From: an uncultured Terriglobales bacterium
GTDB lineage: Bacteria > Acidobacteriota > Terriglobia > Terriglobales > Acidobacteriaceae
NCBI GenBank assembly: GCA_964439635.1
Contig: CAYTPH010000001.1
Coordinates: 3,969 to 36,068 of the forward strand
DNA: 32,100 nt
Reading direction: 5' to 3'
Of this stretch, positions 2,853 through 20,323 are shown piece after piece (position 1 is the first letter of the stretch; every line of letters begins with the position of its first letter). Below the pieces are notes generated by a model. It made no database searches, was not told the origin of the DNA, and saw nothing but the letters and a program-made list of their open reading frames with translations. Both the position numbers and the translations under genes were made by a program.

Positions 2853-4214
2853 ATGCATCCTTCTGCTGCCCGAGTCGCGCTTCCCGACGAGTTGATCTCC
2901 AAGATCCAGGCCCGCACGGCGCGTGTCGGGATCATTGGCATGGGCTATGTCGGCCTGCCCCTCGCCCTGCTCTTCAGTGAGCAGAAGTTCCCGGTGTGCG
3001 GTTTCGACATCGACGCCAAGAAGGTGGAAGTTCTCTCCCAGGGCGGGTCCTACATCTACCGCATCCCGGCCGCCGACATCCAGACGGCCCGCGCCCGCGG
3101 CTTCAGCGCCACCGCCAATTACGCCAACGTCGCCGACATGGACGCGGTCATCATCTGTGTCCCGACCCCGCTGAACGAGTATCGCGAGCCCGATCTCAGT
3201 TACATCACCGCGACCGCCGAAGCCATCGCCCCCTACATCCGTCCCGGGCAGCTCATCGTCCTCGAGAGCACCACCTATCCCGGCACCACCCACGAGGTCC
3301 TGGTTCCCATCCTGGAGAAGAAGAACCGTCTCGGCCTGCGAGTGGCGCGCAGCAACGAGCCCGCGGCGGAAGACGTCTTCTACGTCGCCTTCTCTCCCGA
3401 GCGCGAGGACCCGGGCAACGAGACCGTCGCCCGACACGATATCCCCAAGGTGATCGGCGGCTGCGACCCGGCGGCTTCTCGCCTCGCCGCCGCCCTCTAC
3501 GGCTCCATCTTCCGCCGCACCGTCCTGGTCTCCTCGCCCGGCGCCGCGGAGATGACCAAGCTGCTGGAGAACATCTATCGCTGCGTCAACATCGCGCTGG
3601 TGAACGAGCTCAAGCTGCTCTGCCTGCGCATGGGCATCGACATCTGGGAGGTCATCGAGGCGGCCTCCACCAAGCCTTTCGGCTTCCAGCCCTTCTACCC
3701 CGGCCCCGGCCTCGGCGGCCACTGCATCCCCGTCGATCCTTTTTATCTCTCCTGGAAGGCCAAGGAATTCGACTTCCACACCCGCTTCATCGAGTTGGCC
3801 GGCGAGGTCAACACCTCCATGCCGTACCACGTGGTCAGCGCCGTCGCCAACGCTCTCAACCGCCACAAGAAGGCGGTCAACGGCTCGCGCGTCCTGGTGC
3901 TGGGAGTGGCTTACAAGAAGGACATCGACGACCTGCGCGAATCCCCTGCTTTGGCCATCATCGAGTTGTTGAAGCAGGAGGGCGCCGCGGTGGACTACCA
4001 CGACCCTTACTTCCCCTTTGTGGGCAAGGGTCGTAAGTACGATCTGCAGATGAAGTGCGCTTCCCTGGACCGCGTCGGCGACTACGACTGCGTGGTCATC
4101 GTCACCAACCACTCCACCTACGACTACGCCGACATCGTCAAGAGAGCCAGACTGGTGGTGGACACGCGCAACGCGACGCGCGGCATCAAGGCGGACAACA
4201 TCGTCCCCTGCTAG
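2853..4214 (+). CDS. Nucleotide-sugar 6-dehydrogenase (UDP-glucose/GDP-mannose dehydrogenase family; closest in look to the UDP-N-acetyl-hexosamine dehydrogenases WbpA/WbpO/TviB)
   Basis: 453 aa. Rossmann motif VGIIGMGYVGLPLALLF; catalytic region PGPGLGGHCIPVDPFYL; C-terminal UDP-binding domain VLVLGVAYKKDIDDLRESPA. Confidence 0.85.
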   Translation: MHPSAARVALPDELISKIQARTARVGIIGMGYVGLPLALLFSEQKFPVCGFDIDAKKVEVLSQGGSYIYRIPAADIQTARARGFSATANYANVADMDAVIICVPTPLNEYREPDLSYITATAEAIAPYIRPGQLIVLESTTYPGTTHEVLVPILEKKNRLGLRVARSNEPAAEDVFYVAFSPEREDPGNETVARHDIPKVIGGCDPAASRLAAALYGSIFRRTVLVSSPGAAEMTKLLENIYRCVNIALVNELKLLCLRMGIDIWEVIEAASTKPFGFQPFYPGPGLGGHCIPVDPFYLSWKAKEFDFHTRFIELAGEVNTSMPYHVVSAVANALNRHKKAVNGSRVLVLGVAYKKDIDDLRESPALAIIELLKQEGAAVDYHDPYFPFVGKGRKYDLQMKCASLDRVGDYDCVVIVTNHSTYDYADIVKRARLVVDTRNATRGIKADNIVPC

Positions 4215-4745: not shown

Positions 4746-5059
4746 GCTGCGACGTACATCGGCGCGAGCGGTTCCCGTCTTTTGTCCCTTTTTCGCCGGA
4801 TTTCAACCGCCTGCCATCGGGGTTATCACTTCGTAAACACCTGAGTCCTTAACCCCTTAGAGGCCTTTTCTGTGTAGCCTTTTTCCCGGCAAAGTGGTAT
4901 TACTGCGGCCACTTAGCACCCAAATCAGGAAGGTGCAGGCTTCGACCGGGCGCCCGCTTAGGCGACCGGCCGAAGGGGATGGGCTGGTGGAGCGAACGTG
5001 TGCTGCGGTCGGCCGCGTCGGAGTCCGGATTCGTATGCCCGTTCCTCGGAGGAGGGGAA

Positions 5060-8000
5060 ATGAGCCGTCTTACACGCCGCTTCATGCTGGTTGCTGGGCT
5101 TCTGCTGCTCTTGGTCCCGGCTGTGTTCGCCGCTACTCAGAACGCCGTCATTTATGGAACCGTTTATAACGCGGCCGGTAATCCCATGCCGGATGTCAGC
5201 GTCACTCTGGAGAACCCGGCGTTGGGCTTCTCCCGCACCACCGCCACCGGCTCCGACGGCTCCTACAACTTCGCCGAGGTCCCGCCCGCGGACGGCTACA
5301 AGGTGACCGCCCGCCAGGGCGCCAAGACCCTGGACATCCGCGCCGGCATCACCGTCAACGTCGGCGACGAGCGCGTGATCCTGCCCCCGTTGACCGAGCA
5401 GGTGCAGACCGCCACCGGGCCCGCCGAGCCGGTCGCCCCCAAGGTCATGAGCGAGGGCATCCGCACGGAGACGGTCAGCACTTCCATCAGCGGCGTCGTC
5501 ACCGGCGACCAGCTGCGCTCCCTCCCGCTCTACAACCGAAACTTCCTCGTCCTCGGCCTGATCACGCCCAACGTGAAGGACACCGAGGCCGGCTCCGAGC
5601 TGGCGGGCGCCTCCTTCAGCGTCGCCGGCACCCGGCCCAGCCAGAACAGCTTCCTGCTGGACGGCGCCGACAACGTCGCCTCCAGCAGCAACCAGGCCGT
5701 GCCCTTCCAGGTGAACGACGCCATCCAGGAGTTCCGCGTCATTTCCTCCACCGCGAACGCCGAGTATGGCCGCAACCTGGGCGGCACCGTGAACGTGGTC
5801 ACCCGCCGCGGCGGCAACGCCTTCCATGGCAGCGGCTACGGCTACTTCGGCATGGATTCGCTCAACGCCGAAAACCACGTCTCTCTCTATAACGGTTCCA
5901 CCTTCGATAAGGCGGCCGCGTTCGCCGGCCCCACCACCGCGGTGGCGGTGCCCTCCACCAGCGCCGAGTTCTTCACCCCGTTCACCTACAACCAGTACGT
6001 GGCCAACGCCGAAGCCGGGGCCGGCAACCCCGCCTTCCGCTTCTGCACCGACGGCATCGGCAGTGCCGCGGGCACGCCCTGCACCAACGGCGTCAGCGGC
6101 CTGAATACCCGCTTCGATCCCGCCACCCTGCTGGCGCAGCACAACCGCTTCAAGCCCAGCTTCGATTCCAAGCAGTTCGGCATCAACCTGGGCGGCCCCA
6201 TCGCCAAGGACAAGCTGTTCTTCTTCGCCAGCTACGAGGGCACTCGCATCGACAACCCCAACGCCGTGCTGGAGCGCGTCCCCTCGTCCTTCGACCGCAC
6301 CTACGATCCGTTCGCCACCGGCGCTTTCAACTTCGCGCCCACCGACGCCAACTACGTCCTGAACCAGAACATCCTGTCGCTGTTCCCGGCTTCCAACCTC
6401 AACACCATCGCGGATGGCGCGGTACCCGGGGTGCTGGAGTTCTTCCAGGGCGAGGCCCCCAACTACACCAACGTCGACAACATCCTGTTCCGCGCCGACT
6501 ACCGCCGCTCCGAGCAGACCAGCTTCGCCCTGCGTTACGCGGTGCAGTTCCTGAACCAGCTGCACGACGCCACCCTACCCGCGACCGGCTCCTACCCCGG
6601 CAACGGCGCGCTGCGCAACGCCTTCAACCAGAACCTGAGCATCACCTTCTCGCGCTCACTGTCGTCCACCGCCATCAACGAGCTGCGGTTCGGCTTCAAT
6701 CGCTTCGACGTCTCCGAGGAGGCGCAGGACATCGGCTTCGACGCCAGCACGCTGGGCATGCCTGTTACCGCCCTGCCCACCATCCTGCTGAACGGCCTCG
6801 ACACCCAGTACAGCGGCCAGCGACCGCCGGGCGGCACCGGCTTCGCCACCGCCGGCGCCTTCACCACCTGGGTGGACTGCTGCAACATGCTGCCCTGGGC
6901 CGATTTCCGCTTCCCCTTCGCGCGACTGGGAGCGCCGCTGGGCACGCCCGCCGGGCGCCGCGACACCACCTGGTTCGTGGGCGACAGCATCTCCCTCTCC
7001 CGCGGCAAGCACAGCTTCAAGTTCGGCGTCGACTTCCGCAAGCTGGACAACAACGCTTTCAACGGGTCCTTCAACCGCGGCATGATCTACTCCTCGAACA
7101 TCGGCGAGTTCACCAGTGATTCCGAGAGCTGCCACGGCCTGTGCAACAGCGCCTTTGCCTTCCCCTCGTTCGATTTTGCCCAGTTCAATCCCACCTACAG
7201 CGGGCACTTCGATTCGTACGTCGTGTCGGGATACTTCCAGGACACCTTCCGCATCCACCCGCGCGTGACCCTCAACATGGGCCTGCGCTACGACTACTTC
7301 TCGGTGCCCACCGAGGCCAATGACGGCATCTGGAATTTCGATCCTCGTGCCAACGGCCTGGTGCAGCAGAACGGCTCCTCCATCACCGACCCCTACGGCT
7401 ACGCTTGCGGAAGCCCCGCCAGCTGGGACTCGGTCCCGCAGGTCATCCAGGGCTTCCTGGGCTTCGGCTTCGTGTCCGATTGGCAATGCCAGACGTCCCC
7501 CACTGGGGCGCAGAACATCGCCCGCTCGGATAAGAACAATGTAGCCCCGCGTTTCGGCATGGCCATCGACATGTTCGGCAACGGCCGCACCGTGCTGCGC
7601 GGCGCCGTGGGCTGGTTCTACGACCAGACCCCGGTCAGCTATACCCAGCAGCTGATGTTCAACCGGCCCATCCCCTTCTCCGAGCACAACGGCATGCTGG
7701 GGCAGATCGGCTGCCCCACTCCCTGCGCCGTCTCCATCGGCCTGGGCTCGAGCGACATCCTGAACCGCACCTTCCCGGGTTTCTCTCAGTTCTTTAGCGA
7801 CGTCGCCCAACCGTTCACCACCTACGCCCGCGATGTGGACCACTCGGCCACCCCGTTCTCCCGCCAGATCAGCGTCTCGCTGCAGCAGCGTGTGCATGAC
7901 AAGGTCGGGCTCGAGGTCGGCTACGTGAGCACCGTGGCCGAGGACCTGCCGGTCATCTACGACAGCAACTTTGTGAACGAATGGAGCAACGTCGGCTTCC

Positions 8001-9073
8001 AGGGCCTGCTGCTCAGTGGCGACATCAGCCGCGACCTGCTGCGCAGCAACATGCAGCATTTCCCGGTCTTCACCCTCACCAACCAGGCCGAATCGCACTA
8101 TCACTCGCTGATGGCGCGGGCCCGCATCCAGGACTTCCACGGCCTGCGGGTGAACGCCACCTACACCTGGGCCAAGGGCCTGGATAACGCCTCGAACGCC
8201 GTCTATCCGTCGCTGCCCATCGCCCCCCAGAACCTGCTGATCGGCTACCAGGCCTTCGCCAACGGCAACCTGCCGGCGTGGTGCCTGCTGGTGACGCCCA
8301 TCGCCGACCCCAGCCGCACGCCGCTGTGCGCCAAGAGCGTGCCGCTGTTCCCGTTCATCGATTTCAGCAGCGGGGCTGTCACCACCACCGGCGCCGGCCA
8401 GATCCTGGTCAGCCGCTACAACCTGCCCCAGAACCCCCTGAACTTCCTGGTGGACGACTACGGTCCGTCCGACTTCGACGTCCGCCACCGCGTGGTCATC
8501 GACTACACCTGGGACGTCCCCTCGCTGAGCAAGGCCTACGGCCTGCCCAAGTGGATGGACAACTGGACGCTGAGCGGCATTTTCGTGGCCCAGACCGGCC
8601 AGCCCTTCACTATCTTCTCCGGCCCCATCGCCGGCGCCATCACCCAGCGCGGCGACATCGGCGGCACCGTGATCACCGATTTCAGCACCCCGTTCAACAC
8701 CATCCAGTCCACCGACATCATCCTGCCGCAGCAGAGCCTGCTGGCCTGCCCGGCGGCGCAGCTCGGCCTGGGCACCAGCACCTTCCTCCCCCGTCCGGGC
8801 GAGCCTTGCATCGGCCACTCCGGCCGCAACCAGTGGACCGGGCCGGACTTGATCAGCATGAACTTCGCGGTACAGAAGGGGTTCCAGATCTTCGGCGAAG
8901 GCCGCATGCTGATCATGCGCGCCGAGTTCTTCAACATGTTCAACCGCGCCAACTACTACAACCCGATCAGCGCGGCTAGCGACAACGGCTTCACTCCGTC
9001 GGGCGACTTCGGCACCATCAAGTCGGCCCACGAGCCGCGCCAGATCCAGTTGGCGGTGCGCTTTACTTGGTAG
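5060..9073 (+). CDS. TonB-dependent outer-membrane receptor with an N-terminal carboxypeptidase-regulatory-like (CarboxypepD_reg) domain
   Basis: I chose ATG 5060, preceded by GGAGGAGGGG, not the track start 4979. Signal peptide MSRLTRRFMLVAGLLLLLVPAVFA. CarboxypepD_reg-like IYGTVYNAAGNPMPDVSVTLEN...GSYNFAEVPPADGYKVTA. Plug-like segment ISGVVTGDQLRSLPLYNRNF. The long beta-barrel ends in an aromatic residue (..IQLAVRFTW*). 1337 aa. Confidence 0.85.
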   Translation: MSRLTRRFMLVAGLLLLLVPAVFAATQNAVIYGTVYNAAGNPMPDVSVTLENPALGFSRTTATGSDGSYNFAEVPPADGYKVTARQGAKTLDIRAGITVNVGDERVILPPLTEQVQTATGPAEPVAPKVMSEGIRTETVSTSISGVVTGDQLRSLPLYNRNFLVLGLITPNVKDTEAGSELAGASFSVAGTRPSQNSFLLDGADNVASSSNQAVPFQVNDAIQEFRVISSTANAEYGRNLGGTVNVVTRRGGNAFHGSGYGYFGMDSLNAENHVSLYNGSTFDKAAAFAGPTTAVAVPSTSAEFFTPFTYNQYVANAEAGAGNPAFRFCTDGIGSAAGTPCTNGVSGLNTRFDPATLLAQHNRFKPSFDSKQFGINLGGPIAKDKLFFFASYEGTRIDNPNAVLERVPSSFDRTYDPFATGAFNFAPTDANYVLNQNILSLFPASNLNTIADGAVPGVLEFFQGEAPNYTNVDNILFRADYRRSEQTSFALRYAVQFLNQLHDATLPATGSYPGNGALRNAFNQNLSITFSRSLSSTAINELRFGFNRFDVSEEAQDIGFDASTLGMPVTALPTILLNGLDTQYSGQRPPGGTGFATAGAFTTWVDCCNMLPWADFRFPFARLGAPLGTPAGRRDTTWFVGDSISLSRGKHSFKFGVDFRKLDNNAFNGSFNRGMIYSSNIGEFTSDSESCHGLCNSAFAFPSFDFAQFNPTYSGHFDSYVVSGYFQDTFRIHPRVTLNMGLRYDYFSVPTEANDGIWNFDPRANGLVQQNGSSITDPYGYACGSPASWDSVPQVIQGFLGFGFVSDWQCQTSPTGAQNIARSDKNNVAPRFGMAIDMFGNGRTVLRGAVGWFYDQTPVSYTQQLMFNRPIPFSEHNGMLGQIGCPTPCAVSIGLGSSDILNRTFPGFSQFFSDVAQPFTTYARDVDHSATPFSRQISVSLQQRVHDKVGLEVGYVSTVAEDLPVIYDSNFVNEWSNVGFQGLLLSGDISRDLLRSNMQHFPVFTLTNQAESHYHSLMARARIQDFHGLRVNATYTWAKGLDNASNAVYPSLPIAPQNLLIGYQAFANGNLPAWCLLVTPIADPSRTPLCAKSVPLFPFIDFSSGAVTTTGAGQILVSRYNLPQNPLNFLVDDYGPSDFDVRHRVVIDYTWDVPSLSKAYGLPKWMDNWTLSGIFVAQTGQPFTIFSGPIAGAITQRGDIGGTVITDFSTPFNTIQSTDIILPQQSLLACPAAQLGLGTSTFLPRPGEPCIGHSGRNQWTGPDLISMNFAVQKGFQIFGEGRMLIMRAEFFNMFNRANYYNPISAASDNGFTPSGDFGTIKSAHEPRQIQLAVRFTW

Positions 9074-9248
9074 GCGGAGGCGCCCGCGTGGCGCCCCTGG
9101 CCTGACAGCAGGGACCGCGGACAGGACGGCGAGTCCCCGGCAAGGGAAGAAGACGGGACCGCGTTTGCGTCCCGCCGGTTAGCAGTGGCGGTAAGGGAAA
9201 GAGGAGCACGAGCGGTTACTTCGGGCACCTTGCCGGCGCCCGGGTTGC

Positions 9249-9278
9249 TTGACTCGGCGATCGCGACGGGCATACGAT
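9249..9278 (+). promoter_or_regulatory. Candidate sigma70-type promoter for the giant surface-protein gene
   Basis: TTGACT (9249-9254), a 17/18-nt spacer, then ATACGAT (9272-9278). This would give a leader of about 190 nt. Confidence 0.3.
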
Positions 9279-9471
9279 CGCCCCCTCCCCGACCCGCAGT
9301 TCTCCCCCAAGACGTGTGCGGTCTCCCCATCCCCCGCGGGAGGCGTGTCCGCTCACGGCAGTCCGGGCCCAGGTACAGCTTTGAGGACGACCCCAGGTGG
9401 TGGTTGCAGACCCCTCCGCGACGGAGCGTCTGCGCGCCGGACAGGGTACTGAGGGATTCAGGAGAGAAGCC

Positions 9472-12400
9472 ATGACACCGAGCCGCCTTTTCCAGACGTT
9501 GGTGATCGTCATCATTCTTGCGTTTGTCGCCCTGCCGGGCTGGGCCGGCGACGTGCAGACCAGCACCGCCCTCAGCAGCGCCACCCGCACCGCCCCACGC
9601 CAAGTCGCGTTCGGCGACGTCACCGGGGATGCCAACATCGACGCCGTCGTGGGCTTCAGCGGCCAGATCTGCGTCTTTGTCGGCGACGGCACCAGTCCCT
9701 TCCCTACCCCCACGGCTGAGACCGCCTGTGTCGCCGTGGCCAGCAACTTCGCCATCGCCATCGGGGAGGTCACCGGTGACGCGATCGCCGACATCGTGGT
9801 CAGCTCGGGCCGCGATATCGTGCTCTTGACCAACAATCCCAAGGGGACCTTCACCGCCTCGACGGCGGAGAACAACGCCGCCGACGCCAGCAACACCATC
9901 AGCGGCATCATCCTCATCGACGCCGATAACGACGGCGACACCGACATCGTCGCCACCGACACCAACGACACCGTCATCGTCGATCGCAACGCGGCCGGCT
10001 TCGGCGGCGGTGCGGTCAAGACCAACGTGACCGGCGCCGGCTCGCTGACCGGCGGCCTGGCCAGCGTGGGCGACATCAGCACCACCCCTGATTCCCTTCC
10101 CGAGCTCGCCGTGGCTGATGGCGGCAATAGCCGCATCTTCATCCTCACCAACGCCGGCGCCGGGGCTTTCACAGCGGCTCCGTTGGACACCATCACCACC
10201 ACCACCGCGCCTACCGGCATCGTCAGCGCCGATTTCGACGGGGATGGCGACCTCGACGTCGCCGCCTCCTTGAACACCGCGGGCAGCGGCGTGGGCATCG
10301 CGCTCAGCGCCGGCGCGGTGGCCAATCCGTTCCCGGCCGCCGCCACCGAGGTGGCTGTGACCGGCACCCCCAGGGATATCGGTGCCGGCGACTTCACCGC
10401 CGACGGCTCCCCCGATCTGGCGGTCTCGACCACTTCCGGCGGCGTAGGGCTGCTGAACAATGGGGCTGGTGTCTTCACCGCCGAACCGCCCATCGCCGCC
10501 GGCACCACTCCCCAGGGTATTGCGGTCGCCGATCTGCACGGCGACGGATTGGACGACGTCGCCATCGCCAACAACGGCAGCGATGATGTCAGCATTTTCC
10601 TGGTCAGCGGCTTCTCCTCCGTGAACGGAGACAACCCGCAGCCCGGCGGCGCCGACCCCTTCGAGGGCGTGCCCTTCTCCGGCATCCAGGTAGCAAACTT
10701 TAATTACGACCTCCCCGTCACCACCGCGGAGTTCACCGCCACCATCGATTGGGGTGACGGCAGCGTCTCCCCCGGCGATGGACAGCCGGTCACCATCACC
10801 GGCGGCGCCGGCGTCTTCGGGGTGTCGGGCAATCACACCTACTCCGACCCGCTGGCTACGCAGACCTCGCCCTACACCATCACCGTCACGATCTCGAACA
10901 CCACGCCGGGGGTCTTTACCGTGAGTCCGGGCACCGCGCCCACCGCCACCGTGCAGGACACCCCCATCGAGGTCAGTCCTCCGGCCACCGCGGACGTCAA
11001 CGGCAATCCGGGTCTGCTCTCGTACCTGGTCGCCAACTTCCACGACGACAACACCACCTCGGACGCGACTCACTACGACATCAGCGTGGACTGGGGCGAC
11101 ACCACCTCCGACAACTGTCCCGCCCCCTGCGCCGGCGTGGCCCAGACCGCCAGCGGCCCCGGCGGCAAGGACTACGGCGTCACCCTGTCGCATAACTACG
11201 CCGCCCCTGGCACCTACACCGTCATAACCACCATCACGGACGCCGAATCCGGCGGCACCGAGACCAACACGGTCTCCATCAGCGCTTTCATCGGCACCAT
11301 CAGCAATCTGGTTCCCACCCCCATCGCGGGCTTTACCGAGGGCACGCCGGCCACCGGTGTGCTGGCCTTCGACAGCAGCCGCGTGGGCGCCGCTGCGGGC
11401 GAGTTCAGCATCTCCGTTGACTGGGGCGACAGCACCCCGCTCGACGTTTGCAGCGCGCCCTGTGCCGACGTCAGCGGTCCGGTTGGTTCGACCTTCACCC
11501 TCAGCCGGAACCACACCTACAACAACGAGACCGACGGGACGCCTTACAACGTCACCTACACCGTCACCGACATCAGCGACGCCAGCGTGGGCACGGTCGG
11601 CACCACCGCCACCATCACGCAGGCGGTCATCAGCGTGACCGCCAACCCGGTGGCCCGCAACGAGGGCCAGCTCTTCACCGGGGTCATCGCCAGCTTCACC
11701 GATCCCAGCGCGGCCTCGCCCAGCGCTGACTACGCCGCCACCATCGACTGGGGCGATGCGACCTCCACCACCTGTCCTTCCGCCACTTGCACCATCACCA
11801 GCGCCGGCGGGGGCAGCTACAACATCAACATCGTCGGTACCGGTAAGCGGTACCTGAACGAAGGCCTGTACCCGATCACGGTCGACGTCACCGACCAGTC
11901 CTTCGGGCCTTATAGCGACACCGACACCGCCACCATCGCCGACGTCGGCCCGGTCGCCGGCGCCACCACCTTCACCGTCGGGACCCTGGCCAGCCCGCTG
12001 CTGGTGGGCGTGGACAGCTTCTCCGGCAACGTGGCGGAGTTCACCGACCCCAGCGGCACCGAGGTGGCCGGCAGCTTCACCGCCATGATCAACTGGGGTG
12101 ACGGCAGCCCGGATACGGCCGGCACCATCACCACCGTGACCCCGGGTGTCCCCGGCACCACCGCCGGCGTCTTCCGCGTGAACGCCAGCGGCACGCCACA
12201 TACGTTCACCAACGTCAGCACCACGGTCACCATCACCATCAGCGAGGCCGACGGGACTCCCGCAACCATCATCGTGGTGGACACTGCCTTCACCACCAGC
12301 ATCTCGGCGGTGACCGCTACGCCGTTTGCGGCGACCGAAGGCACGGCTTTCCTCGGCGCGGTGGGCTCCTTCACCAGCAACCGCTCCGTGCCGGCGCCGG

Positions 12401-14970
12401 CGGCTGGCGAGTTCTCTTTGGTCATCAGCTGGGGCGACGGCTCGCCTGATACGGTCTGCAGCGCGCCCTGCGCCCTGGTTTCCGGCGCCGGGCCGAGCTT
12501 CACCATCAGCGGAACCCCGGCCCACATCTATACCCACTTCGGCTCCTACCCGGTGAACATCACCGTAACCGACATCATCGACGGTAGCAGCCGCGCCACC
12601 GCGGCGCCCGCTACCGCCAGCGTGGCTGACGCGCCCCTCATCAATTCCGACTTCCACCCCGCCGTCAGCGGGACGGAAGGCTCCGCCCTGAATGGCGGCG
12701 TCCCCTTCGATATCGCCCTCTGGGAGGACACCAACCCCTTTGCCACTCCGGCCGACTACACCAGCGGCACGGGCAGCATGATTGTCAATTGGGGAGACGG
12801 CACCAGCTCGCCGGCTGACGGCGGTCCGGTCAACGTCCGTATTCTCTTCGGTTGCGGCGGTGCGTCGCCCTGCGTGTTCATGCTGAGCAGCACCCACACC
12901 TACACCGAGCACGGCCCCTACGGCACCGAGTTCGTCGTGACCTCGGACGGCGGAGCCTCCATCACCATCAATCCGGGCGGCGCGACGCTGAACGTCTCCA
13001 TCGCCGACGCTCCGCTGACCACGCCCACTCCTGCCGCAGTCGTGGGCACGGAGGGCCTGGTCCTCAGCGGTGGCGCACCCACCACGGTGGCCACCTTCGT
13101 GGACGACAACCCGTTCGCCACCCCCGCCGACTACACCACGGGCACCGGCAGCGTGACCATCAACTGGGGTGACGGCAGCCCGACCTCTCCGGGCGATGGC
13201 CAGCCGGTCAGCGTGGTCGTGCAGAGCGGCTGCGCCGGCGTGGCTCCGTGCGTCATGGCTGTCCGGGGCATCCACACCTACACCGAGCACGGCAGCTACG
13301 GCATCCAGGTGGACGTCCTCGATATGGGCGGTTCTGCCCTCACCATCAACCCGGGTGGGGCGACCCTCAATGCCAGCATCGCCGACGCCCCGCTCACTCC
13401 GGGTGCGCCGGTGGCCCTGGCCGGCACCGAGGGCACGGCCCTCAGCGGCGTGGTCGTGGGGACCTTCACCGACGGGAACCCCTACGGCCTGGCCACCGAC
13501 TTCACCGCCAACATTGATTGGGGCGATACCACCAGCTCCGCTGGCACGGTCACCGTCCTTAGCGGCTGCGGCGGCGTGGCTCCCTGCATCTTCCAGGTCA
13601 CCGGAACCCACACCTACGCGGCCTTCAATCCGGCCTACGCTATTTCGGTAGGCATCACCGATATCGGTGGCTCCACCGCAACGCTTACCGGCAGCGCGGC
13701 CATCGCCGATGCGGCGCTGACGGCGAATGCTCCGCCGGCCATCGTGGGAGTGGAGGGCGCGGTGCTGAACGTCAGCGTCGGCAGCGTCCTGGATGCGAAC
13801 CCCTCCGGTGTCGCCTCCGACCTCTCCGCCATCATCGATTGGGGTGACGGCACCGCCACTTCCGCGGGCACCGTCACCGGCGCGGTGGGCGGGCCGTTCG
13901 ACGTCAGCGGCAGCCACCAGTACACCGCCGCAGGCACCTATGGCGTTGAAGCGGCGGTCACCAGTCTCGGTGGCTCCATCGCCACTATCAACCCGGGCGG
14001 TGCGGTCCTCAACGCGACTATCTCGGACGCGCCTTTTGGCAGCTTCATCGCCAACTGCCCGGACATCCCGGCGGTGCCCTGCCAGAAGGTGACCCCGGCG
14101 GGTCGTGGCGTGCAGCCGCCGGTGCTTTTCGGCACCTTCACCGACACCAACCCCTTCGGCCTGGCGTCGCAGTTCACCGCTACCATCGACTGGAATGACG
14201 GTACGGTGGGCCCGGCCTTCGCCATCACCCCGGTGGGCTGCACCGCGGCCGGCTGCACGTTCGAGATCTACGGCGACCACCAGTACGCCGTGCCCGACGT
14301 GACCTTCGCCGTGCACATCACCATCCACAGCCTGGACGGCGCCCCCGACTTGAACGTCATCGTGTTCCTCACCTCCGGTGAGGGCGGCGGCGGTGTCGGC
14401 GCTCCGCCGTACCTGACCACCGTGGACACTCCGACCATCACCGTCCGCAACGGCCAGAATGCCGTTTACGACTTCACCCTCACGCCCCTGAGCTTCCCGG
14501 CGGGGTTCCCCTTCGAGGTGACCTTCTCCTGCATCCCGCCGCTGCCCCAGGGCGTGACCTGCGTCTTCAACCCGCCGTCGGTGCCTGATGTCACCGTGGT
14601 CCGCAACATGACCTTGACGGTGCACACCACCGCCCCGTCGGCCGCGCTGCGGCCTCCGCTCGGCGGCGCCGGCCCGATGCTGGCGTACTGGCTGCCGGCC
14701 TCGGGGCTGGGCATGTTCGGTCTCATGCTGGCCGGTTCAGGCGGCAGCCGCAAGCGCCGCGTCCTGTTCTGGACGATGGTCTCGCTGCTGTTCATCACCG
14801 TGGCGGCAGTGGGCTGCGGTGGCGGCGGTGCCACGTTCGGGCCGGTCCCCACCGGCGACACCTCCACCCCGCTGGGTAGCCAGGCGATCCGTATCCAGTT
14901 CAGCTCGCCCACGGCGCCGGCTGGCCAGCAGACGCAGACGTTCACGGTCATCGTGGCCGTGACCCCGTAA
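9472..14970 (+). CDS. Giant exported surface protein: 7 FG-GAP/VCBS repeats (beta-propeller), 11 PKD-like 'WGDG' Ig-fold repeats, a terminal Ig-like domain, a double TM segment and a short tail
   Basis: I chose ATG 9472, preceded by GGAGAG (track ORF starts at 9397). Signal peptide MTPSRLFQTLVIVIILAFVALPGWA. There are seven Dx[DN]xDGxxD-type FG-GAP motifs (GDVTGDANIDAVV, DADNDGDTDIVAT, ADFDGDGDLDVAA, GDFTADGSPDLAV, ADLHGDGLDDVAI ..). There are eleven [IV][DNS]W[GN]DG...HxY repeats. 1832 aa. A perfect terminator follows directly. Confidence 0.85.
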   Translation: MTPSRLFQTLVIVIILAFVALPGWAGDVQTSTALSSATRTAPRQVAFGDVTGDANIDAVVGFSGQICVFVGDGTSPFPTPTAETACVAVASNFAIAIGEVTGDAIADIVVSSGRDIVLLTNNPKGTFTASTAENNAADASNTISGIILIDADNDGDTDIVATDTNDTVIVDRNAAGFGGGAVKTNVTGAGSLTGGLASVGDISTTPDSLPELAVADGGNSRIFILTNAGAGAFTAAPLDTITTTTAPTGIVSADFDGDGDLDVAASLNTAGSGVGIALSAGAVANPFPAAATEVAVTGTPRDIGAGDFTADGSPDLAVSTTSGGVGLLNNGAGVFTAEPPIAAGTTPQGIAVADLHGDGLDDVAIANNGSDDVSIFLVSGFSSVNGDNPQPGGADPFEGVPFSGIQVANFNYDLPVTTAEFTATIDWGDGSVSPGDGQPVTITGGAGVFGVSGNHTYSDPLATQTSPYTITVTISNTTPGVFTVSPGTAPTATVQDTPIEVSPPATADVNGNPGLLSYLVANFHDDNTTSDATHYDISVDWGDTTSDNCPAPCAGVAQTASGPGGKDYGVTLSHNYAAPGTYTVITTITDAESGGTETNTVSISAFIGTISNLVPTPIAGFTEGTPATGVLAFDSSRVGAAAGEFSISVDWGDSTPLDVCSAPCADVSGPVGSTFTLSRNHTYNNETDGTPYNVTYTVTDISDASVGTVGTTATITQAVISVTANPVARNEGQLFTGVIASFTDPSAASPSADYAATIDWGDATSTTCPSATCTITSAGGGSYNINIVGTGKRYLNEGLYPITVDVTDQSFGPYSDTDTATIADVGPVAGATTFTVGTLASPLLVGVDSFSGNVAEFTDPSGTEVAGSFTAMINWGDGSPDTAGTITTVTPGVPGTTAGVFRVNASGTPHTFTNVSTTVTITISEADGTPATIIVVDTAFTTSISAVTATPFAATEGTAFLGAVGSFTSNRSVPAPAAGEFSLVISWGDGSPDTVCSAPCALVSGAGPSFTISGTPAHIYTHFGSYPVNITVTDIIDGSSRATAAPATASVADAPLINSDFHPAVSGTEGSALNGGVPFDIALWEDTNPFATPADYTSGTGSMIVNWGDGTSSPADGGPVNVRILFGCGGASPCVFMLSSTHTYTEHGPYGTEFVVTSDGGASITINPGGATLNVSIADAPLTTPTPAAVVGTEGLVLSGGAPTTVATFVDDNPFATPADYTTGTGSVTINWGDGSPTSPGDGQPVSVVVQSGCAGVAPCVMAVRGIHTYTEHGSYGIQVDVLDMGGSALTINPGGATLNASIADAPLTPGAPVALAGTEGTALSGVVVGTFTDGNPYGLATDFTANIDWGDTTSSAGTVTVLSGCGGVAPCIFQVTGTHTYAAFNPAYAISVGITDIGGSTATLTGSAAIADAALTANAPPAIVGVEGAVLNVSVGSVLDANPSGVASDLSAIIDWGDGTATSAGTVTGAVGGPFDVSGSHQYTAAGTYGVEAAVTSLGGSIATINPGGAVLNATISDAPFGSFIANCPDIPAVPCQKVTPAGRGVQPPVLFGTFTDTNPFGLASQFTATIDWNDGTVGPAFAITPVGCTAAGCTFEIYGDHQYAVPDVTFAVHITIHSLDGAPDLNVIVFLTSGEGGGGVGAPPYLTTVDTPTITVRNGQNAVYDFTLTPLSFPAGFPFEVTFSCIPPLPQGVTCVFNPPSVPDVTVVRNMTLTVHTTAPSAALRPPLGGAGPMLAYWLPASGLGMFGLMLAGSGGSRKRRVLFWTMVSLLFITVAAVGCGGGGATFGPVPTGDTSTPLGSQAIRIQFSSPTAPAGQQTQTFTVIVAVTP
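10660..14330 (+). repeat. Intragenic tandem array of 11 PKD-like domain repeats (period about 320-380 nt)
   Basis: W-G/N-D codon clusters lie at about 10746, 11089, 11418, 11747, 12090, 12429, 12787, 13164, 13516, 13838 and 14189. Units 7-9 are the most similar to each other, with an exact 378-nt spacing of the DAPL boundary (12628, 13006, 13384). Confidence 0.75.
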
Positions 14971-14987
14971 GCGGCTCGGACTTAGCT

Positions 14988-15017
14988 CCCCGGCGGGCAA
15001 CCGCCGGGGATTTTTTT
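14988..15017 (+). terminator. Rho-independent terminator of the giant gene (possibly bidirectional for the convergent small gene)
   Basis: Perfect 9-bp stem CCCCGGCGG / CCGCCGGGG with loop GCAA, followed by A-TTTTTTT. It starts 18 nt after the TAA at 14968-14970. Confidence 0.85.
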
Positions 15018-15028
15018 GTGGGCTTGGG

Positions 15029-15271: not shown

Positions 15272-15870
15272 CAGTGCGTCCTCTGCAAGCGCGCGATCAG
15301 CTTCTGCGCCAAGTTCTCCTCCGACTCCGACCACAACACCCGGCCGCTGATGCCGCAGTGCTGCTCCACCGCGCTGGAGAAGGCCACCAGCTTCTGTACG
15401 TTCTGTTTCACCCGTGCCTCGGCCTCGTCCGTGAGCGGCAGGTCCTCCCACAGGAACGGCGTGTCCAGGCCGAAGTCCACCTGGATATGCCCGTCCTCCT
15501 GGCACAGCCCCTCGCCGAACTCCGTTCCCAGCGCCAGGAAGCGCACCGGCTGCGGCTGTTGGACCCAGGCCTCCTCGGGCTCCTCCTCCGAGGGACTCCA
15601 CAGGTCCCACGCCGCCTCGAAGACGTACGCCGAATCGGCATGCAGGAACTCTCGTGCCAGCTCGACCGCCTGCTCCGGCGGGGTGGCTGAGTCGAAGGTC
15701 TGCTGGAAGGCCAGCGGCTCCTCCCAGGCGATGGGATGCACCGCCATCGCGGTGATCCCCGGCCGCTGCTCCGAATATGGGAACTGCCGCAGCACCGACA
15801 GCGCCCGCGGCAGCATCTCCTCCTCTGCGAAGCTGGGGAACCACAGGTTCAGGTAGAGGGAATCGGCCAT
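15271..15870 (-). CDS. Acidic cytoplasmic protein of unknown function (199 aa)
   Basis: ATG at 15870. It has protein-like composition, unlike the Arg/Pro/Gly-rich shadow frames here: MADSLYLNLWFPSFAEEEMLPRALSVLRQFPY...VKQNVQKLVAFSSAVEQHCGISGRVLWSESEENLAQKLIARLQRTH. I recognise no family. Confidence 0.7.
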   Translation of the reverse strand: MADSLYLNLWFPSFAEEEMLPRALSVLRQFPYSEQRPGITAMAVHPIAWEEPLAFQQTFDSATPPEQAVELAREFLHADSAYVFEAAWDLWSPSEEEPEEAWVQQPQPVRFLALGTEFGEGLCQEDGHIQVDFGLDTPFLWEDLPLTDEAEARVKQNVQKLVAFSSAVEQHCGISGRVLWSESEENLAQKLIARLQRTH

Positions 15871-15953
15871 GGCGCGGCTCTATTGTACGCTTGGATGCGG
15901 GGCCGCCCCGCCGCCCGTTGCAATCCGCGCCGCCCCTGTACTATTGTGCCCGC

Positions 15954-16313
15954 GTGGCTTGCATCGTCCGTCACGAGGGAAATGTCGCCGTCCTCCAGCT
16001 CGAGGGCAAGCTGGCGCTCGGTCCGGGGCTGGACGATTTCCGCCGCGCCTGGTCGGAGACGCTGGGCTCCGGCTGCCGCAACCTGGTGGTGAACCTGGCC
16101 CAGGTCCCCATCATCGACTCCTCCGGTATCGGCACCCTCATCCGCTTCCACTCCGCCGCCGTCGCCTCCCACGGCAAGGTCCGCCTGGTCGCGCCCACCG
16201 AGTTCGTGCGCAAGGCCCTGGAGCTCAGCCAGCTGCACACCATCTTCAAGATCTACGACGACGAAAGCGCGGCCGTCTCCTCCTTCGATTCCGGCGCCGC
16301 AGCCAAGCCCTGA
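15954..16313 (+). CDS. STAS-domain protein (anti-sigma-factor antagonist, SpoIIAA/RsbV family)
   Basis: GTG 15954 gives 119 aa: (M)ACIVRHEGNVAVLQLEGKLALGPGLDDF..NLVVNLAQVPIIDSSGIGTLIRFHSAAVASHGKVRLVAPTEFVRKALELSQLHTIFKIYDDESAA. This is the canonical STAS layout with the phosphorylatable DSSG motif. The start codon is uncertain and there is no SD. Confidence 0.75.
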   Translation: MACIVRHEGNVAVLQLEGKLALGPGLDDFRRAWSETLGSGCRNLVVNLAQVPIIDSSGIGTLIRFHSAAVASHGKVRLVAPTEFVRKALELSQLHTIFKIYDDESAAVSSFDSGAAAKP

Positions 16314-17696: not shown

Positions 17697-18170
17697 ATGC
17701 GCCTTCACACCCGCTTTGTTCTTGTTCTTTGTGCGGCCCTCGTCTGCGTCTCGGCTCTTCCCGCGCAGGACGCCCCGAAACCGGCGGACAAAGGCATCAG
17801 CCTCTGTATCACCATCAGCCAGTACGCTCTCACCGGCTACGGCCGCAGCCACATCCCTCCCGACCGCCTGCGCGATGTGCTGGTGAAGCGCCTCGATAAT
17901 CCGAAAAAGGGTGTGAAGGTGCAGGGTCTGCGCAGCGAACAGTCCGGCGAAGAGGCCGTGACCGAGGCCCGCTCGAAAGGGTGCAACTACCTGCTGACGC
18001 TGGCCATCGGCACGCCCGGGAAGTACCGCCTGGTGGCGCTGGAGACCGAGGAACCGGTGATCCAGGGCGACGTCATGATCACCAACCAGAACAGCGCCAA
18101 CGACATCTCCATCCCTAGCGAGCGCGCCGCCATGGAAGCGCTCAGCAAGTTGCAGAAGCGCCGCAAGTAG
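17697..18170 (+). CDS. Exported protein of unknown function (157 aa)
   Basis: A strong SD (GGAGGA) lies 5 nt before the ATG. Signal peptide MRLHTRFVLVLCAALVCVSALPAQD. I recognise no family. Confidence 0.65.
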   Translation: MRLHTRFVLVLCAALVCVSALPAQDAPKPADKGISLCITISQYALTGYGRSHIPPDRLRDVLVKRLDNPKKGVKVQGLRSEQSGEEAVTEARSKGCNYLLTLAIGTPGKYRLVALETEEPVIQGDVMITNQNSANDISIPSERAAMEALSKLQKRRK

Positions 18171-19596
18171 CCATCCCCGGCAGCTCGCGCAAGCCACAGC
18201 GCGCCGCCTGCCGCTCCGCCACCGCGCGCATGGCCGCCTCACGCTGGGGCGCGAGCGCTGGCCGGCGGTACCCTGCCACCAGTTCGCCGGCGCGCTGCCG
18301 CGCCCGCTCGAAGCTGTCGCCGCTGCACTCGTCTCCCCGCTGGATCACCTCCGAGGGGAAGTGTTGCTCCTCGCGGAACAGGGCGCGGGTCTCCTTCAGC
18401 CGCAGGAAGTCCCCGGTCTTTCCTGCCGCAGCGAACATCGCCAGCGTATCGGGGCGTTCCTGCACTCCTGCAAGCAGGCGCTGGACGGAGGCGATGGCCT
18501 CGGCGTCGATCACCAGCTTCTCCACGCTGTGACAGGCCAGGAAATCCAGCATGCCCGCGCCGGAGATCATGTTGATCCCCGCCAGCGCTCCCAGCATCGC
18601 CGACATGCCGCTCTCCATCCCCGCCTGCGCGTCCACCAGCTTGCTGTCGCTGGCGCAGAGATAGCCGTGCGTGGGCAGGCCCAGGCTCTTGCCCACCAGC
18701 GCGCACGCGGCATCCAGCATGGCGGTCTCCATGGCGCCCATGGGCGCCGTCCCGGTGCGCATGTCGAAGATGGCCGGCGCTCCGCCCCACACGATGGGCG
18801 CTCCCGGATTCACCGCCTGGTGGATGACGATGCCGGCCAGGCTCTCCGCCGCATGCTGGGTCACCGCTCCCGCCAGTGTCACCGGCGCCGCCGCGCCGGC
18901 CAGCGGCATCGAGACCATCTCCGCCGGGACTCCGGCCCGCGCCAGCTCCACCAGGTTCCGCGCCGCGAACTCCGTCCAGTTCATCGGAGGCGACGGGCAC
19001 ACGTCGAAAACCGCTCTGGGCGAGGCTTTCAGCGCCTCGGCTCCTCCCGCTTCGGCTTGCAGCAGCTCCCGCATGGGCCCCAGGCCGGCCGCGCTGAACG
19101 CCCCGGTCACCACCGGCTTCTCCGAATGCCACAAGACCAGCAGGAGCCGGTAGAAGTCTCCCAGCTCGCTGGGCACGTCGCTGCACACCATCGCGGTGGA
19201 CTGCGCGGCGAATTGCGGCAGCATCTCCGTCACCTGCACCATCCGGACCAGGTCGTCCGCCACCGCCGGACGCGGCCGGCGCGTCGCCGGGTCCAGGATG
19301 TTAAGACACGATGATCCCGGGTCGAAGTGCACGGCGTCTCCGCCGTAACGCACGGCTCGCCCACCCCGCCGGTCGTAGAGGAAGAACTCGCGCGGGACGC
19401 TCTCCAGCGCCGTGCGCACCAGCTTTTCCGGGATGCGGACAGAATCACCGCCCTCCACCTCCGCACCGGCGGCGCGCAGCAGCTCCACCGCCTCCAGCGA
19501 GGCCACTCGGACTCCCCGGGCATGCAGCAGCTCCAGCGCATCGCCCAGGATGCGGCCGACCAGGGCCTGGGGCAGCAGCTCCAGCCGGGGCCTCAT
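18142..19596 (-). CDS. MttB-superfamily (trimethylamine methyltransferase family) protein, non-pyrrolysine type; probable quaternary-amine:corrinoid methyltransferase
   Basis: This is the 484-aa lower part of the 701-aa track ORF, starting MRPRLELLPQALVGRILGDALELLHARGV.. The ATG overlaps the corrinoid gene's stop (ATGA at 19596-19593). The length and MttB-like segments (DAVHFDPGSSCLNILD, VSMPLAGAAAPVTLAG, GLPTHGYLCASDSKLVDAQAG) fit the family. There is no in-frame TAG. Confidence 0.8.
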   Translation of the reverse strand: MRPRLELLPQALVGRILGDALELLHARGVRVASLEAVELLRAAGAEVEGGDSVRIPEKLVRTALESVPREFFLYDRRGGRAVRYGGDAVHFDPGSSCLNILDPATRRPRPAVADDLVRMVQVTEMLPQFAAQSTAMVCSDVPSELGDFYRLLLVLWHSEKPVVTGAFSAAGLGPMRELLQAEAGGAEALKASPRAVFDVCPSPPMNWTEFAARNLVELARAGVPAEMVSMPLAGAAAPVTLAGAVTQHAAESLAGIVIHQAVNPGAPIVWGGAPAIFDMRTGTAPMGAMETAMLDAACALVGKSLGLPTHGYLCASDSKLVDAQAGMESGMSAMLGALAGINMISGAGMLDFLACHSVEKLVIDAEAIASVQRLLAGVQERPDTLAMFAAAGKTGDFLRLKETRALFREEQHFPSEVIQRGDECSGDSFERARQRAGELVAGYRRPALAPQREAAMRAVAERQAARCGLRELPGMATCGASATC

Positions 19597-20240
19597 CGCG
19601 GCACCAGTTCTTTCGCCAGCGCCACCGCGCTGAGGGCGTCCTTGCCGTATCCCTCGGCGCCGATCTCGCTGGCCCACTGCCGCGTCACCGGCGCGCCGCC
19701 CACCATCACCCGCACTCCCGGCCGCAGCCCCGCCCGCTCCAGTGCCTCCACCACACCCCGCTGGTTCTTCATGGTGGTGGTCAGCAGTGCCGACACTCCC
19801 ACCAGCTCCGCTCCTACCTCCTTCACCTTCTCCGCGAAGCGCTCCGCCGCCACGTCTACCCCGAGGTCGTGCACCTTGAAGCCGTTGGCCGTGAGCAGCG
19901 TCCCCACCAGGCACTTGCCGATCTCGTGGATGTCGCCCTTGGTCGTCCCCAGCACCACCGTGCCCAAGGATGGCCGTTCGCCGCCGGCTCGGACCAGCTC
20001 CGGTTCCAGGATGGCCATGGCTGCCTGCATGGCTTCGCTCGACGCCATCAGGTCCGGCAGGAACACCTGCCGGCAGCCGAACAGGACCCCCACTTCGTTC
20101 ATCGCCGGGACCAACCCTTCGTTGATGGCCTCCAGCGGCGCGACCCCGCTCTCCAGGGCCTTGCGCGCCGCCTGGCGGGCGTGGTCGGGGGCGCCCATCA
20201 GCACGCTCCGCCGCATGGCCGCGAAGACTTCCTCCTGCAT
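19593..20240 (-). CDS. Cobalamin-binding corrinoid protein (B12-binding cap plus Rossmann domain)
   Basis: 215 aa. An SD (GAGGTG) precedes the ATG. B12-binding signature DxHxxG (GDIHEIGK), SxL (VSALLTTT) and GG (VMVGGAP). The N-terminal helical cap resembles MtbC/MttC-type proteins. Confidence 0.85.
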   Translation of the reverse strand: MQEEVFAAMRRSVLMGAPDHARQAARKALESGVAPLEAINEGLVPAMNEVGVLFGCRQVFLPDLMASSEAMQAAMAILEPELVRAGGERPSLGTVVLGTTKGDIHEIGKCLVGTLLTANGFKVHDLGVDVAAERFAEKVKEVGAELVGVSALLTTTMKNQRGVVEALERAGLRPGVRVMVGGAPVTRQWASEIGAEGYGKDALSAVALAKELVPR

Positions 20241-20323
20241 GGCTCACCTCGGGCCGAGCCTACCGGAGGCGCGACCAGCCCGCTGTGACCTCCCGCACAG
20301 CGCCCCGGTTATCGGTCACGCCG

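Follow-up and report, generated by a model that had tools for sequence, protein, structure and literature searches.

A putative lipo-invert membrane anchor within the last Ig-like domain of a secreted acidobacterial repeat protein

The stretch of DNA analysed here, hereafter the window, comprises 32,100 nucleotides (nt) from an uncultured Terriglobales bacterium of the family Acidobacteriaceae (assembly GCA_964439635.1, contig CAYTPH010000001.1, positions 3,969 to 36,068 of the forward strand) and encodes on its plus strand a secreted protein of 1832 amino acids (aa) whose C-terminal end is our subject. The open reading frame (ORF) runs from an ATG at 9472 to a TAA stop at 14968-14970, with the longest ORF call starting at a GTG at 9397, and an identical 1832-aa protein (P0001) is present in the public protein collection. 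Translation and Pfam matches (FG-GAP_3 and PKD_4) identify this gene (9472-14970) as encoding an FG-GAP/PKD-like repeat protein. It starts with a Sec-type signal peptide lacking a lipobox, MTPSRLFQTLVIVIILAFVALPGWAG (9472-9549), recognised by reading the sequence and from a Kyte-Doolittle (KD) hydrophobicity peak of 2.83 at residues 10-22, with a presumed cleavage site; according to Pfam and a repeat count, the protein is otherwise made up of FG-GAP repeats and 11 PKD-like 'xWGD' repeats. The protein ends in two helices joined by a basic loop, a lipobox-like Cys at the end of the second helix and a short tail. We consider it probable that this end is a 'lipo-invert' membrane anchor inserted in the E-F loop of the last immunoglobulin (Ig)-like domain, with lipidation of the Cys expected and cleavage by LspA possible.

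The C-terminus reads, in order, ..LAYW-LPAS-GLGMFGLMLAGSGGS-RKRR-VLFWTMVSLLFITVAAVG-C-GGGG-ATFGPV...TFTVIVAVTP*, with LAYW from 14680, RKRR at 14749-14760 and the Cys codon at 14815-14817 (residue 1782 of 1832); 69 residues lie between RKRR and the protein end, and 50 aa follow the Cys. An earlier note, made from the letters of this DNA, had described the same layout, and we find it exactly as given, coordinates included. The module, encoded like the whole gene on the plus strand, can be divided as follows. Strands A-E of a last Ig-like (PapD/ASH-like) domain, ending ..MTLTVHTTAPSA (14410-14628), are modelled by AlphaFold2 (AF2) at residues 20-92 of the last 205 aa (block-mean predicted local distance difference test score, pLDDT, 80-96) and carry a conserved Cys pair at residues 60 and 70 in the same numbering. 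A Pro/Gly-rich linker, TAPSAALRPPLGGAG (14629-14673), placed from alignment A3 and with block-mean pLDDT of 81 and 61 over residues 91-110, connects strand E to helix 1, PMLAYWLPASGLGMFGLMLA (14674-14733; AF2 helix 108-127), which is Gly-rich, marginally hydrophobic by the Hessa scale and KD over 17 residues (KD17), and a predicted stop-transfer segment passing from outside to inside. The presumed cytoplasmic turn GSGGSRKRR (14734-14760) leads into helix 2, VLFWTMVSLLFITVAAVG, the putative h-region of an internal lipoprotein-type signal which ends in the lipobox Cys (14761-14817; AF2 helix 134-153). Behind the Cys, a Gly run and Pro/Thr-rich tether, GGGGATFGPVPTGDTSTPL (14818-14874; block-mean pLDDT 62-65 over residues 151-170), precedes strands F (GSQAIRIQFS) and G (TQTFTVIVAVT) (14875-14967; AF2 strands 175-184 and 194-204), which on the evidence of AF2, Foldseek and family HMM (hidden Markov model) matches appear to complete the last Ig-like domain.

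Helix 2 is clearly hydrophobic (KD peak 2.31 in a 15-residue window, summed Hessa dG -1.2), and both segments are modelled as helices by AF2 despite the marginal character of helix 1. The comparison of helix 2 with a lipoprotein signal, drawn in the earlier note, holds: a basic n-region and an 18-residue h-region are followed by a lipobox Cys and then Gly. Under the rules for signal peptidase II (SPII) substrates (PROSITE PS51257 / DOLOP) the window Cys has RKRR, 18 uncharged residues and A-V-G-C before it, the core pattern matches at residue 1782, and the +2 residue is Gly rather than Asp. The one rule that fails is that of position, since the Cys of an N-terminal signal should fall in the first ~15-35 residues of the precursor and here it is residue 1782 of 1832. 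No second copy of the module was found within the window.

The last 117 residues match the NCBIfam model NF058595, 'invert_tail', in full 'lipo-invert putative C-terminal anchoring domain-containing protein', at 64.3 bits when the last 200 aa are searched (E=1.2e-17, model positions 2-112 of 113) and at 58.9 bits when the entire protein is used, both exceeding the curated cutoff of 37 bits (NCBIfam release 20.0, June 2026). The match stops 3-4 residues short of the protein end, an N-terminal hydrophobic signal-like segment is also present, and each element of the family architecture (helix 1, basic loop, helix 2 with lipobox Cys, short tail) is found in the window protein. By this sequence match the protein joins a curated family of putative C-terminal anchoring modules. 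The architecture is not new to the curators at NCBI, whose reading of it is close to that of the earlier note; the statement there that no described anchoring scheme explains such a layout is therefore outdated, although NF058595 is a putative and unpublished annotation. The model covers the same region as the window tail, and to judge from its name it is understood in the same way, as a helix that inverts the topology and a lipoprotein-type signal behind it, the two serving together as a C-terminal anchor; it is a curated HMM with 'putative' in its name, whereas the split-Ig interpretation, in which the tail is strands F and G and the hairpin an insertion in the E-F loop, is new in the present analysis. 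Pfam has no model on the tail, and a literature search returned no paper, mechanism or experiment on the invert_tail module. Judged from the literature searched, the module, its restriction so far to Acidobacteriota and its split-Ig architecture appear to be unpublished.

With the last 130 aa as query, an exhaustive phmmer search (E<=1e-3) of 1.84 billion representatives matched 86 representative clusters at 50% identity, and the match reaches the protein C-terminus in nearly all of them. Scanning one genome per species with a degenerate DNA pattern for CGGG...GTPAGTY, which is biased to the consensus subfamily, recovered at least 120 loci, so that the taxonomic range and copy numbers given here are lower bounds. 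Among the matches listed, 119 of 120 loci belong to Acidobacteriota, with representation of Terriglobia, Acidobacteriaceae, Ca. Angelobacter, Ca. Acidoferrum, Ca. Sulfotelmatobacter and Acidiferrales, and a member is also present in a single cultured strain, Acidobacteriaceae bacterium KBS 83. The single 'Actinomycetota' metagenome-assembled genome in that list (L088) holds a frameshifted copy and was set aside. Six-frame analysis of these loci gave at least 118 module matches, most of those printed showing helix 1, 3-7 K/R, helix 2, a lipobox and a stop 25-50 aa further on, in host ORFs of ~150 to more than 2000 aa and with more than one module in several genomes. The layout recurs far beyond chance, and similar ends do exist in other acidobacterial proteins, as the earlier note had supposed.

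NF058595 is matched by 44 of the 45 complete genomic host ORFs. These hosts include nine sedolisins and three S8 proteases together with SBBP/NHL/FG-GAP beta-propellers, GlxA-like copper oxidases and Ig arrays; an NCBI 'choice-of-anchor D' domain occurs in 22 of the 45, and a crude 10-residue hydrophobicity test detects an N-terminal signal-peptide-like segment in 37. Such a diversity of secreted hosts with signal-like N-termini indicates that the module behaves as a generic anchoring or sorting module. It is also independent of any neighbouring gene: no conserved partner was found in the flanks of the 120 listed loci, where the largest neighbour clusters resemble off-frame translations of repetitive sequence, and this fits the use of general machinery.

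The most strongly conserved parts of the module are helix 2 and the Cys rather than helix 1. The Cys is the sole invariant column in three alignments (A2, A3 and A5). Among the other columns, conservation of at least 90% is reached by the T and G of a 'TP.G' motif, by one Val in the last strand and by Gly at both +2 and +3. A hydrophobic stretch closing in a lipobox-like Cys, most commonly L-V-G-C, was detected in 82 of the 86 representatives, 52 of these 82 having CGGG, and in two more (P0002 and P0062) the lipobox-like Cys is visible by eye. Family statistics over 178 sequences place the window protein close to the norm in its loop (median 4 K/R and 0 D/E, both as in the window) and in the distance from the last K/R to the Cys (median 18 aa, interquartile range, IQR, 17-19; window 18 aa). 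Its tail after the Cys is 50 aa long (family median 44 aa, IQR 42-46). A helix 1 counterpart exists across the family with a median Hessa sum of +2.1 and KD17 of 2.0 (window +3.2 and 1.38), and its sequence is variable, LP..G occurring in 16% and W-L-[PGSAL] in 34% of the 178. Separately, a linker Pro (P102, window ~14656-14658), about 10 residues past the 'TTA' end of strand E, is at least 90% conserved in A3 and is off the 90% list of A5; standing in an otherwise variable linker, it could have a structural role or mark a processing site upstream of helix 1.

The relationship of the tail to the preceding domain emerges from family members in which complete copies of that domain stand directly upstream of the split copy, as in L023 and L121. 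An HMM of the uninterrupted domain was built from three sister domains (100 positions). Searched with it, 94 of 105 family C-termini give one match before the hairpin (~1-76 in the examples printed) and a second after the Cys (~71-100). In P0095 the uninterrupted copy ends '..LSITTTAATPIGSYPITVTGTSGSLTNPATVTLTV', and the terminal copy reads '..TLTVTTTAPRTS', then linker, helix 1, RRKK, helix 2, C and Gly/Ser, and then 'GGTPAGTYTVTVTGTSGSLTAQTTMFTLTVQ*'. These complementary matches indicate that the hairpin is an ~80-residue insertion in the E-F loop and that the post-Cys tail corresponds to strands F and G. In the window protein the match before the hairpin is clear (positions 7-73, E=2e-8). 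The modelling check proposed in the earlier note, whether the tail completes the preceding Ig domain, was run on the last 205 aa and gave a mean pLDDT of 80, with six strands as far as ..MTLTVHT and with strands 175-184 and 194-204 in the tail at pLDDT 86-95; a model of the family member P0148 has a mean pLDDT of 84.6, a helix-turn-helix and tail strands at pLDDT 96-98. Foldseek aligns the window model over 191-202 columns with a 110-residue PD-1 ectodomain and a 103-residue BIgI domain (target TM-score, TMt, 0.55-0.56) and the P0148 model over 192-210 columns with MSP and ASH/PapD-like domains of 126-142 residues, the TMt range over both models being 0.45-0.56. Compared with the size of these single-domain targets, the alignment lengths imply that both sides of the hairpin are covered. 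HMM complementarity, AF2, Foldseek and the uninterrupted sister domains thus concur in suggesting that the last Ig-like sandwich consists of strands A-E plus the post-Cys strands F-G, and the resemblance of the tail to the last strands of an Ig domain, suspected from the letters, is borne out by the models, Foldseek and the family HMM matches.

The split domain constrains the membrane topology. Strands A-E follow a Sec signal and carry the conserved Cys pair, indicative of an extracytoplasmic location, and strands F-G are needed on the same side to complete the sandwich, which calls for an even number of membrane passes. It follows that helix 1 runs from outside to inside, that the K/R turn is cytoplasmic and that helix 2 runs from inside to outside, giving helix 2 both the orientation and the anatomy of a lipoprotein signal peptide. 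The suggestion that helix 1 provides helix 2 with its N-in/C-out topology is thereby supported, helix 1 being required to invert the chain. The substrates of Lgt and LspA are signal helices embedded in the membrane whose lipobox lies at the outer leaflet. In the sequence of events that we propose, the N-terminal Sec signal would export the large ectodomain, helix 1 and the RKRR cluster would halt transfer and turn the chain from outside to inside, and helix 2 would re-insert N-in/C-out, sending the last 50 residues across the membrane to fold as strands F and G, by which the Ig sandwich would be completed in the periplasm. With a lipobox at the end of helix 2, Lgt would be expected to add diacylglycerol to the invariant Cys, and LspA might cut before it, resulting in a two-chain Ig domain whose F-G hairpin bears an N-terminal lipid. 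A protein with an ordinary signal at its N-terminus would in this way acquire a lipid anchor at its other end; such a protein may finally reside in the inner membrane or, by way of Lol, in the outer membrane or at the surface, the helix 1-helix 2 remnant being kept or lost on the way.

A more far-reaching version of this scheme is that Lgt and LspA, perhaps with Lnt and Lol, act on internal signals in hundreds of Terriglobia proteins and split the last Ig-like domain of each into two chains, which strands F and G keep associated. The N-terminal lipid of a ~45-residue peptide would in this way tether a large enzyme or adhesin, exported through Sec, close to its C-terminus, and once the marginal helix 1-helix 2 remnant is lost the whole could reach the outer membrane or surface as a non-covalently assembled lipoprotein complex. 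We put this forward tentatively, as less likely than not; if correct, it would constitute a new bacterial route to C-terminal lipid anchoring, one that works without a dedicated enzyme of the sortase type.

Several observations weigh against a lipidated split-domain anchor. Helix 1 of the window protein is marginal in hydrophobicity, its Hessa sum being +3.2 kcal/mol over 19 residues and its KD17 1.38. The strict PS51257 core is passed by only 60 of 84 representatives, and the lipobox pattern is poorly specific by itself, with 35 background matches in 23.8 thousand aa. The window tail is divergent and matches the uninterrupted-domain HMM at only E=3.6, so that strands F and G of the window protein are assigned from AF2 and the family alignment; Foldseek gives weak E-values (at best 2.4e-3 and 3.2e-4), and the proposed strand pairing is read from pLDDT and from how far the Foldseek alignments extend. 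Once cut by LspA, the ectodomain chain would retain the helix 1-helix 2 hairpin, which leaves the added value of the lipid, or a route for removing the hairpin, unexplained. Finally, our literature search found no report of internal SPII processing. Its one match to 'C-terminal lipoprotein signal' concerned a protein with a lipidated Cys at the mature N-terminus, that is, an ordinary lipoprotein signal, and was discarded.

These points bear on the rival explanations to different degrees. The module may be a plain helical-hairpin anchor on the inner membrane with a Cys that is neither lipidated nor cleaved and is kept for packing, a thiol function or metal binding. AF2 does model a helix-turn-helix, a hairpin would suffice for anchoring by itself, and the 18-residue h-region has the length of a full transmembrane helix; the low specificity of the lipobox pattern and the lack of reports of internal SPII signals fit this explanation as well. 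However, this explanation sits uneasily with a Cys that is the only invariant residue of the module and is followed by Gly conserved to at least 90% at +2 and +3, with a lipobox that most members follow at -3 to -1, and with a tail that lacks a second conserved Cys. In one metagenome contig (L001), moreover, the tail stands behind a classical N-terminal lipoprotein signal, with homology starting at the Cys codon, and a periplasm-facing site on the inner membrane fits poorly with hosts that are typically surface or extracellular proteins (proteases, adhesin-like arrays, proteins with choice-of-anchor domains). We regard the unmodified hairpin as unlikely.

The earlier note saw in helix 1 a signal of the PEP-CTERM/LPXTG class, and one can imagine helix 1 with its Pro motif and basic cluster as a sortase-, exosortase- or rhombosortase-like signal cut by a dedicated membrane protease or transpeptidase, the remaining tail being accessory. 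The motif, Gly-rich helix and R/K cluster do resemble PEP-CTERM and GlyGly-CTERM signals, a linker Pro before helix 1 is nearly invariant, many hosts have choice-of-anchor domains which elsewhere are paired with such signals, and the exopolysaccharide (EPS) genes that the note had pointed to (BY-kinase, Wzy-like) are indeed present in the window. Against this, the motif is subfamily-specific, helix 1 being unconserved (LP..G and W-L-[PGSAL] are minority features) and less conserved than helix 2 and the Cys, and the segment is never terminal across the family. No PEP-CTERM or LPXTG model of NCBIfam matches the window protein even at E<=1, the window ORFs include no exosortase-like gene, and the 120 listed loci have no conserved neighbour. 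In the window protein LPAS lies inside helix 1, whereas a PEP motif should directly precede the helix, and 69 residues follow RKRR, likewise family-wide, where a PEP-CTERM signal should end the protein; LPASG, considered as an LPXTG motif, is within helix 1, unconserved and non-terminal. A sorting signal of this class is therefore improbable. Least credible, to the point of being negligible, is an artefact or lineage-specific accident: read-through, a frameshift, or fusion with a small downstream lipoprotein gene. A fusion origin is made conceivable by the standalone L001 lipoprotein gene with its 93% identical tail. However, the same architecture is found on unrelated hosts in 86 clusters and at least 118 genomic matches, the syntenic orthologue P0003/L126 retains the complete module, and GC content at third codon positions (GC3) is 0.90 in the tail and 0.88 in the whole gene. 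An intrinsic terminator (14987-15020, plus strand), consisting of a 10-pair stem with 9 G-C pairs at 14987-15010 and then a T run, begins 16 nt past the stop, close behind it as the earlier note had seen, and the ratio of nonsynonymous to synonymous differences per site (pN/pS) in the tail is 0.08. A frameshift or read-through, judged unlikely from the start, is refuted as the explanation of the present-day gene; an ancient fusion origin is possible.

L001 is a single 514-bp metagenome contig with only 0.6x coverage, which makes its evidence provisional. At positions 123-335 it encodes a 70-aa protein with an ordinary N-terminal SPII-type lipoprotein signal, MRMSKLLAVFGAALFVLVGC, followed by the tail that is 93% identical to that of the window protein. 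The block shared with the window (14815-15010) is ~195 nt long, starts at the Cys codon and takes in the tail and the terminator stem, with unrelated sequence on either side. Over 51 codons there are 9 synonymous and 2 nonsynonymous differences, from which the pN/pS of 0.08 is calculated, indicating that the tail is under purifying selection. The gene has its own upstream region with an in-frame stop at 21-23 of the contig. To judge from the sequence, this shared block suggests a movable 'tail + terminator' cassette or a lipidated F-G peptide acting in trans. This gene (P0002/L001) is the only genuine standalone combination of an SPII signal and tail that is left, because hairpin-plus-tail 'mini-proteins' were rejected as a class, being genes truncated in calling, frameshifted genes or relics. 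P0146 and P0159 are artefacts of gene calling, their ORFs continuing upstream into the Ig domain without a stop; P0190 represents the 3' end of a sedolisin gene with a frameshift, and P0155 is a truncated relic of a module gene. The latter (L003-L005:8001-8291) comprises 60 aa of strands C-E, the hairpin and the tail, is cut by an upstream stop, lies in a glycosyltransferase/EPS cluster and is present in 24 or more contigs; it may be a stable pseudogene, or a 96-aa peptide of hairpin and tail may still be made from it. Gene callers often place the start of the tail at a Met within the protein, or break up frameshifted genes in long-read assemblies (L127, L128-L130, L002:5572-8282), and the split-off module then appears in databases as 'hypothetical proteins' of 75-220 aa, some misnamed 'apolipoprotein N-acyltransferase' or 'succinate-acetate transporter'.

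If the Cys is lipidated as we propose, the module would combine features of several known systems. With classical lipoproteins (Sec/SPII, Lgt-LspA-Lnt and Lol; Braun's lipoprotein, PulA) it shares a basic n-region, an uncharged 18-residue h-region, an invariant lipobox Cys and a flexible Gly/Ser tether; unlike theirs, its signal is internal, behind another helix, and the putative 'mature lipoprotein' of ~50 residues would be part of a domain of the upstream chain. The PEP-CTERM/exosortase, GlyGly-CTERM/rhombosortase, LPXTG/sortase and PGF-CTERM/archaeosortase systems likewise use C-terminal modules on diverse secreted proteins, with several substrates per genome, and resemble the present one in the layout of helix 1 (motif, Gly-rich helix, basic cluster) and in the presumed anchoring near the C-terminus. 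The presumed outcome of the PGF-CTERM and GlyGly-CTERM systems is a C-terminal lipid. Helix 1 differs from all these signals in having no signature motif, being non-terminal, and lacking an HMM match and a linked enzyme gene, and the chemistry would be N-terminal lipidation of a separate fragment instead of C-terminal transpeptidation. Donor-strand complementation in chaperone-usher pili and split Ig-like domains made by engineering (SpyTag/SpyCatcher, for example) offer a further parallel, as in both an Ig-like fold is completed by strands on another polypeptide, which would apply to the module after the putative cleavage; the nearest folds to the P0148 model include PapD-like chaperones and ASH/MSP, and the top matches of the window model are other Ig/Fn3-like domains. 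In contrast to those systems, the strands of the module are made in cis and would be separated only after folding, there are two of them (F and G) and not one, and the purpose would be anchoring, not polymerisation.

Acidobacteriota are among the most abundant soil bacteria, and the module forms the C-terminus of many proteases, oxidases, propeller proteins and adhesin-like arrays that they secrete. Use of the internal lipobox would widen the rules for how lipoproteins are made, in that SPII substrates need not be N-terminal, and bacteria would have a counterpart of glycosylphosphatidylinositol (GPI)-, PGF-CTERM- and GlyGly-CTERM-type C-terminal lipid anchoring without a dedicated enzyme. A natural split-Ig domain may also be of interest for protein engineering. 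Annotation is affected as well, since the tail can be split off as a small 'hypothetical protein' and localisation predictors that consider only the N-terminus will misplace the host proteins. The cultured carrier strain KBS 83 makes the question open to experiment.

The eleven PKD-like repeats of the window protein, each ~110-125 aa long and with the motif I/V-[DNS]-W-[GN]-D, extend over 10744-14190 (residues ~425-1573), and some of the later ones bear a 'GCGG(A/V)xPC' or 'GCAGVAPC' pair. Identity of these WGD repeats with NCBIfam PamR, an RbmA-like pilus protein, was dismissed at 46 bits with a cutoff of 300. A 1889-aa antisense ORF (8956-14625, minus strand) covers nearly the whole gene and has the look of a high-GC shadow ORF, not of a gene.

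The start of the window is an EPS locus upstream of the surface-protein gene. On the plus strand it comprises the C-terminal end of a BY-kinase with its Tyr cluster, YYYYGSKYGGHYY (2-127), identified by sequence, and, from domain matches, a Wzy_C O-antigen-ligase-like protein (1308-2822) and a UDP-glucose 6-dehydrogenase (2853-4214); a protein assigned TPR and CBM_4_9 domains lies at 142-1443. Immediately 5' of the module gene, positions 4979-9073 (plus strand) encode an outer-membrane protein of 1364 aa that is related to TonB-dependent receptors (CarboxypepD_reg, OMP_b-brl_4 and a weak Plug match). ORFs with a similar N-terminus flank 5 of the 120 listed module loci, possibly by chance; this outer-membrane family is very abundant in Acidobacteria. 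On the 3' side of the surface-protein gene lies a STAS-domain gene (15777-16313, plus strand), a synteny that is kept at the orthologous locus (L126:6310-6675), and further downstream an MttB-family (trimethylamine methyltransferase-like) protein is encoded on the minus strand at 18142-20247 (E=8.5e-78).

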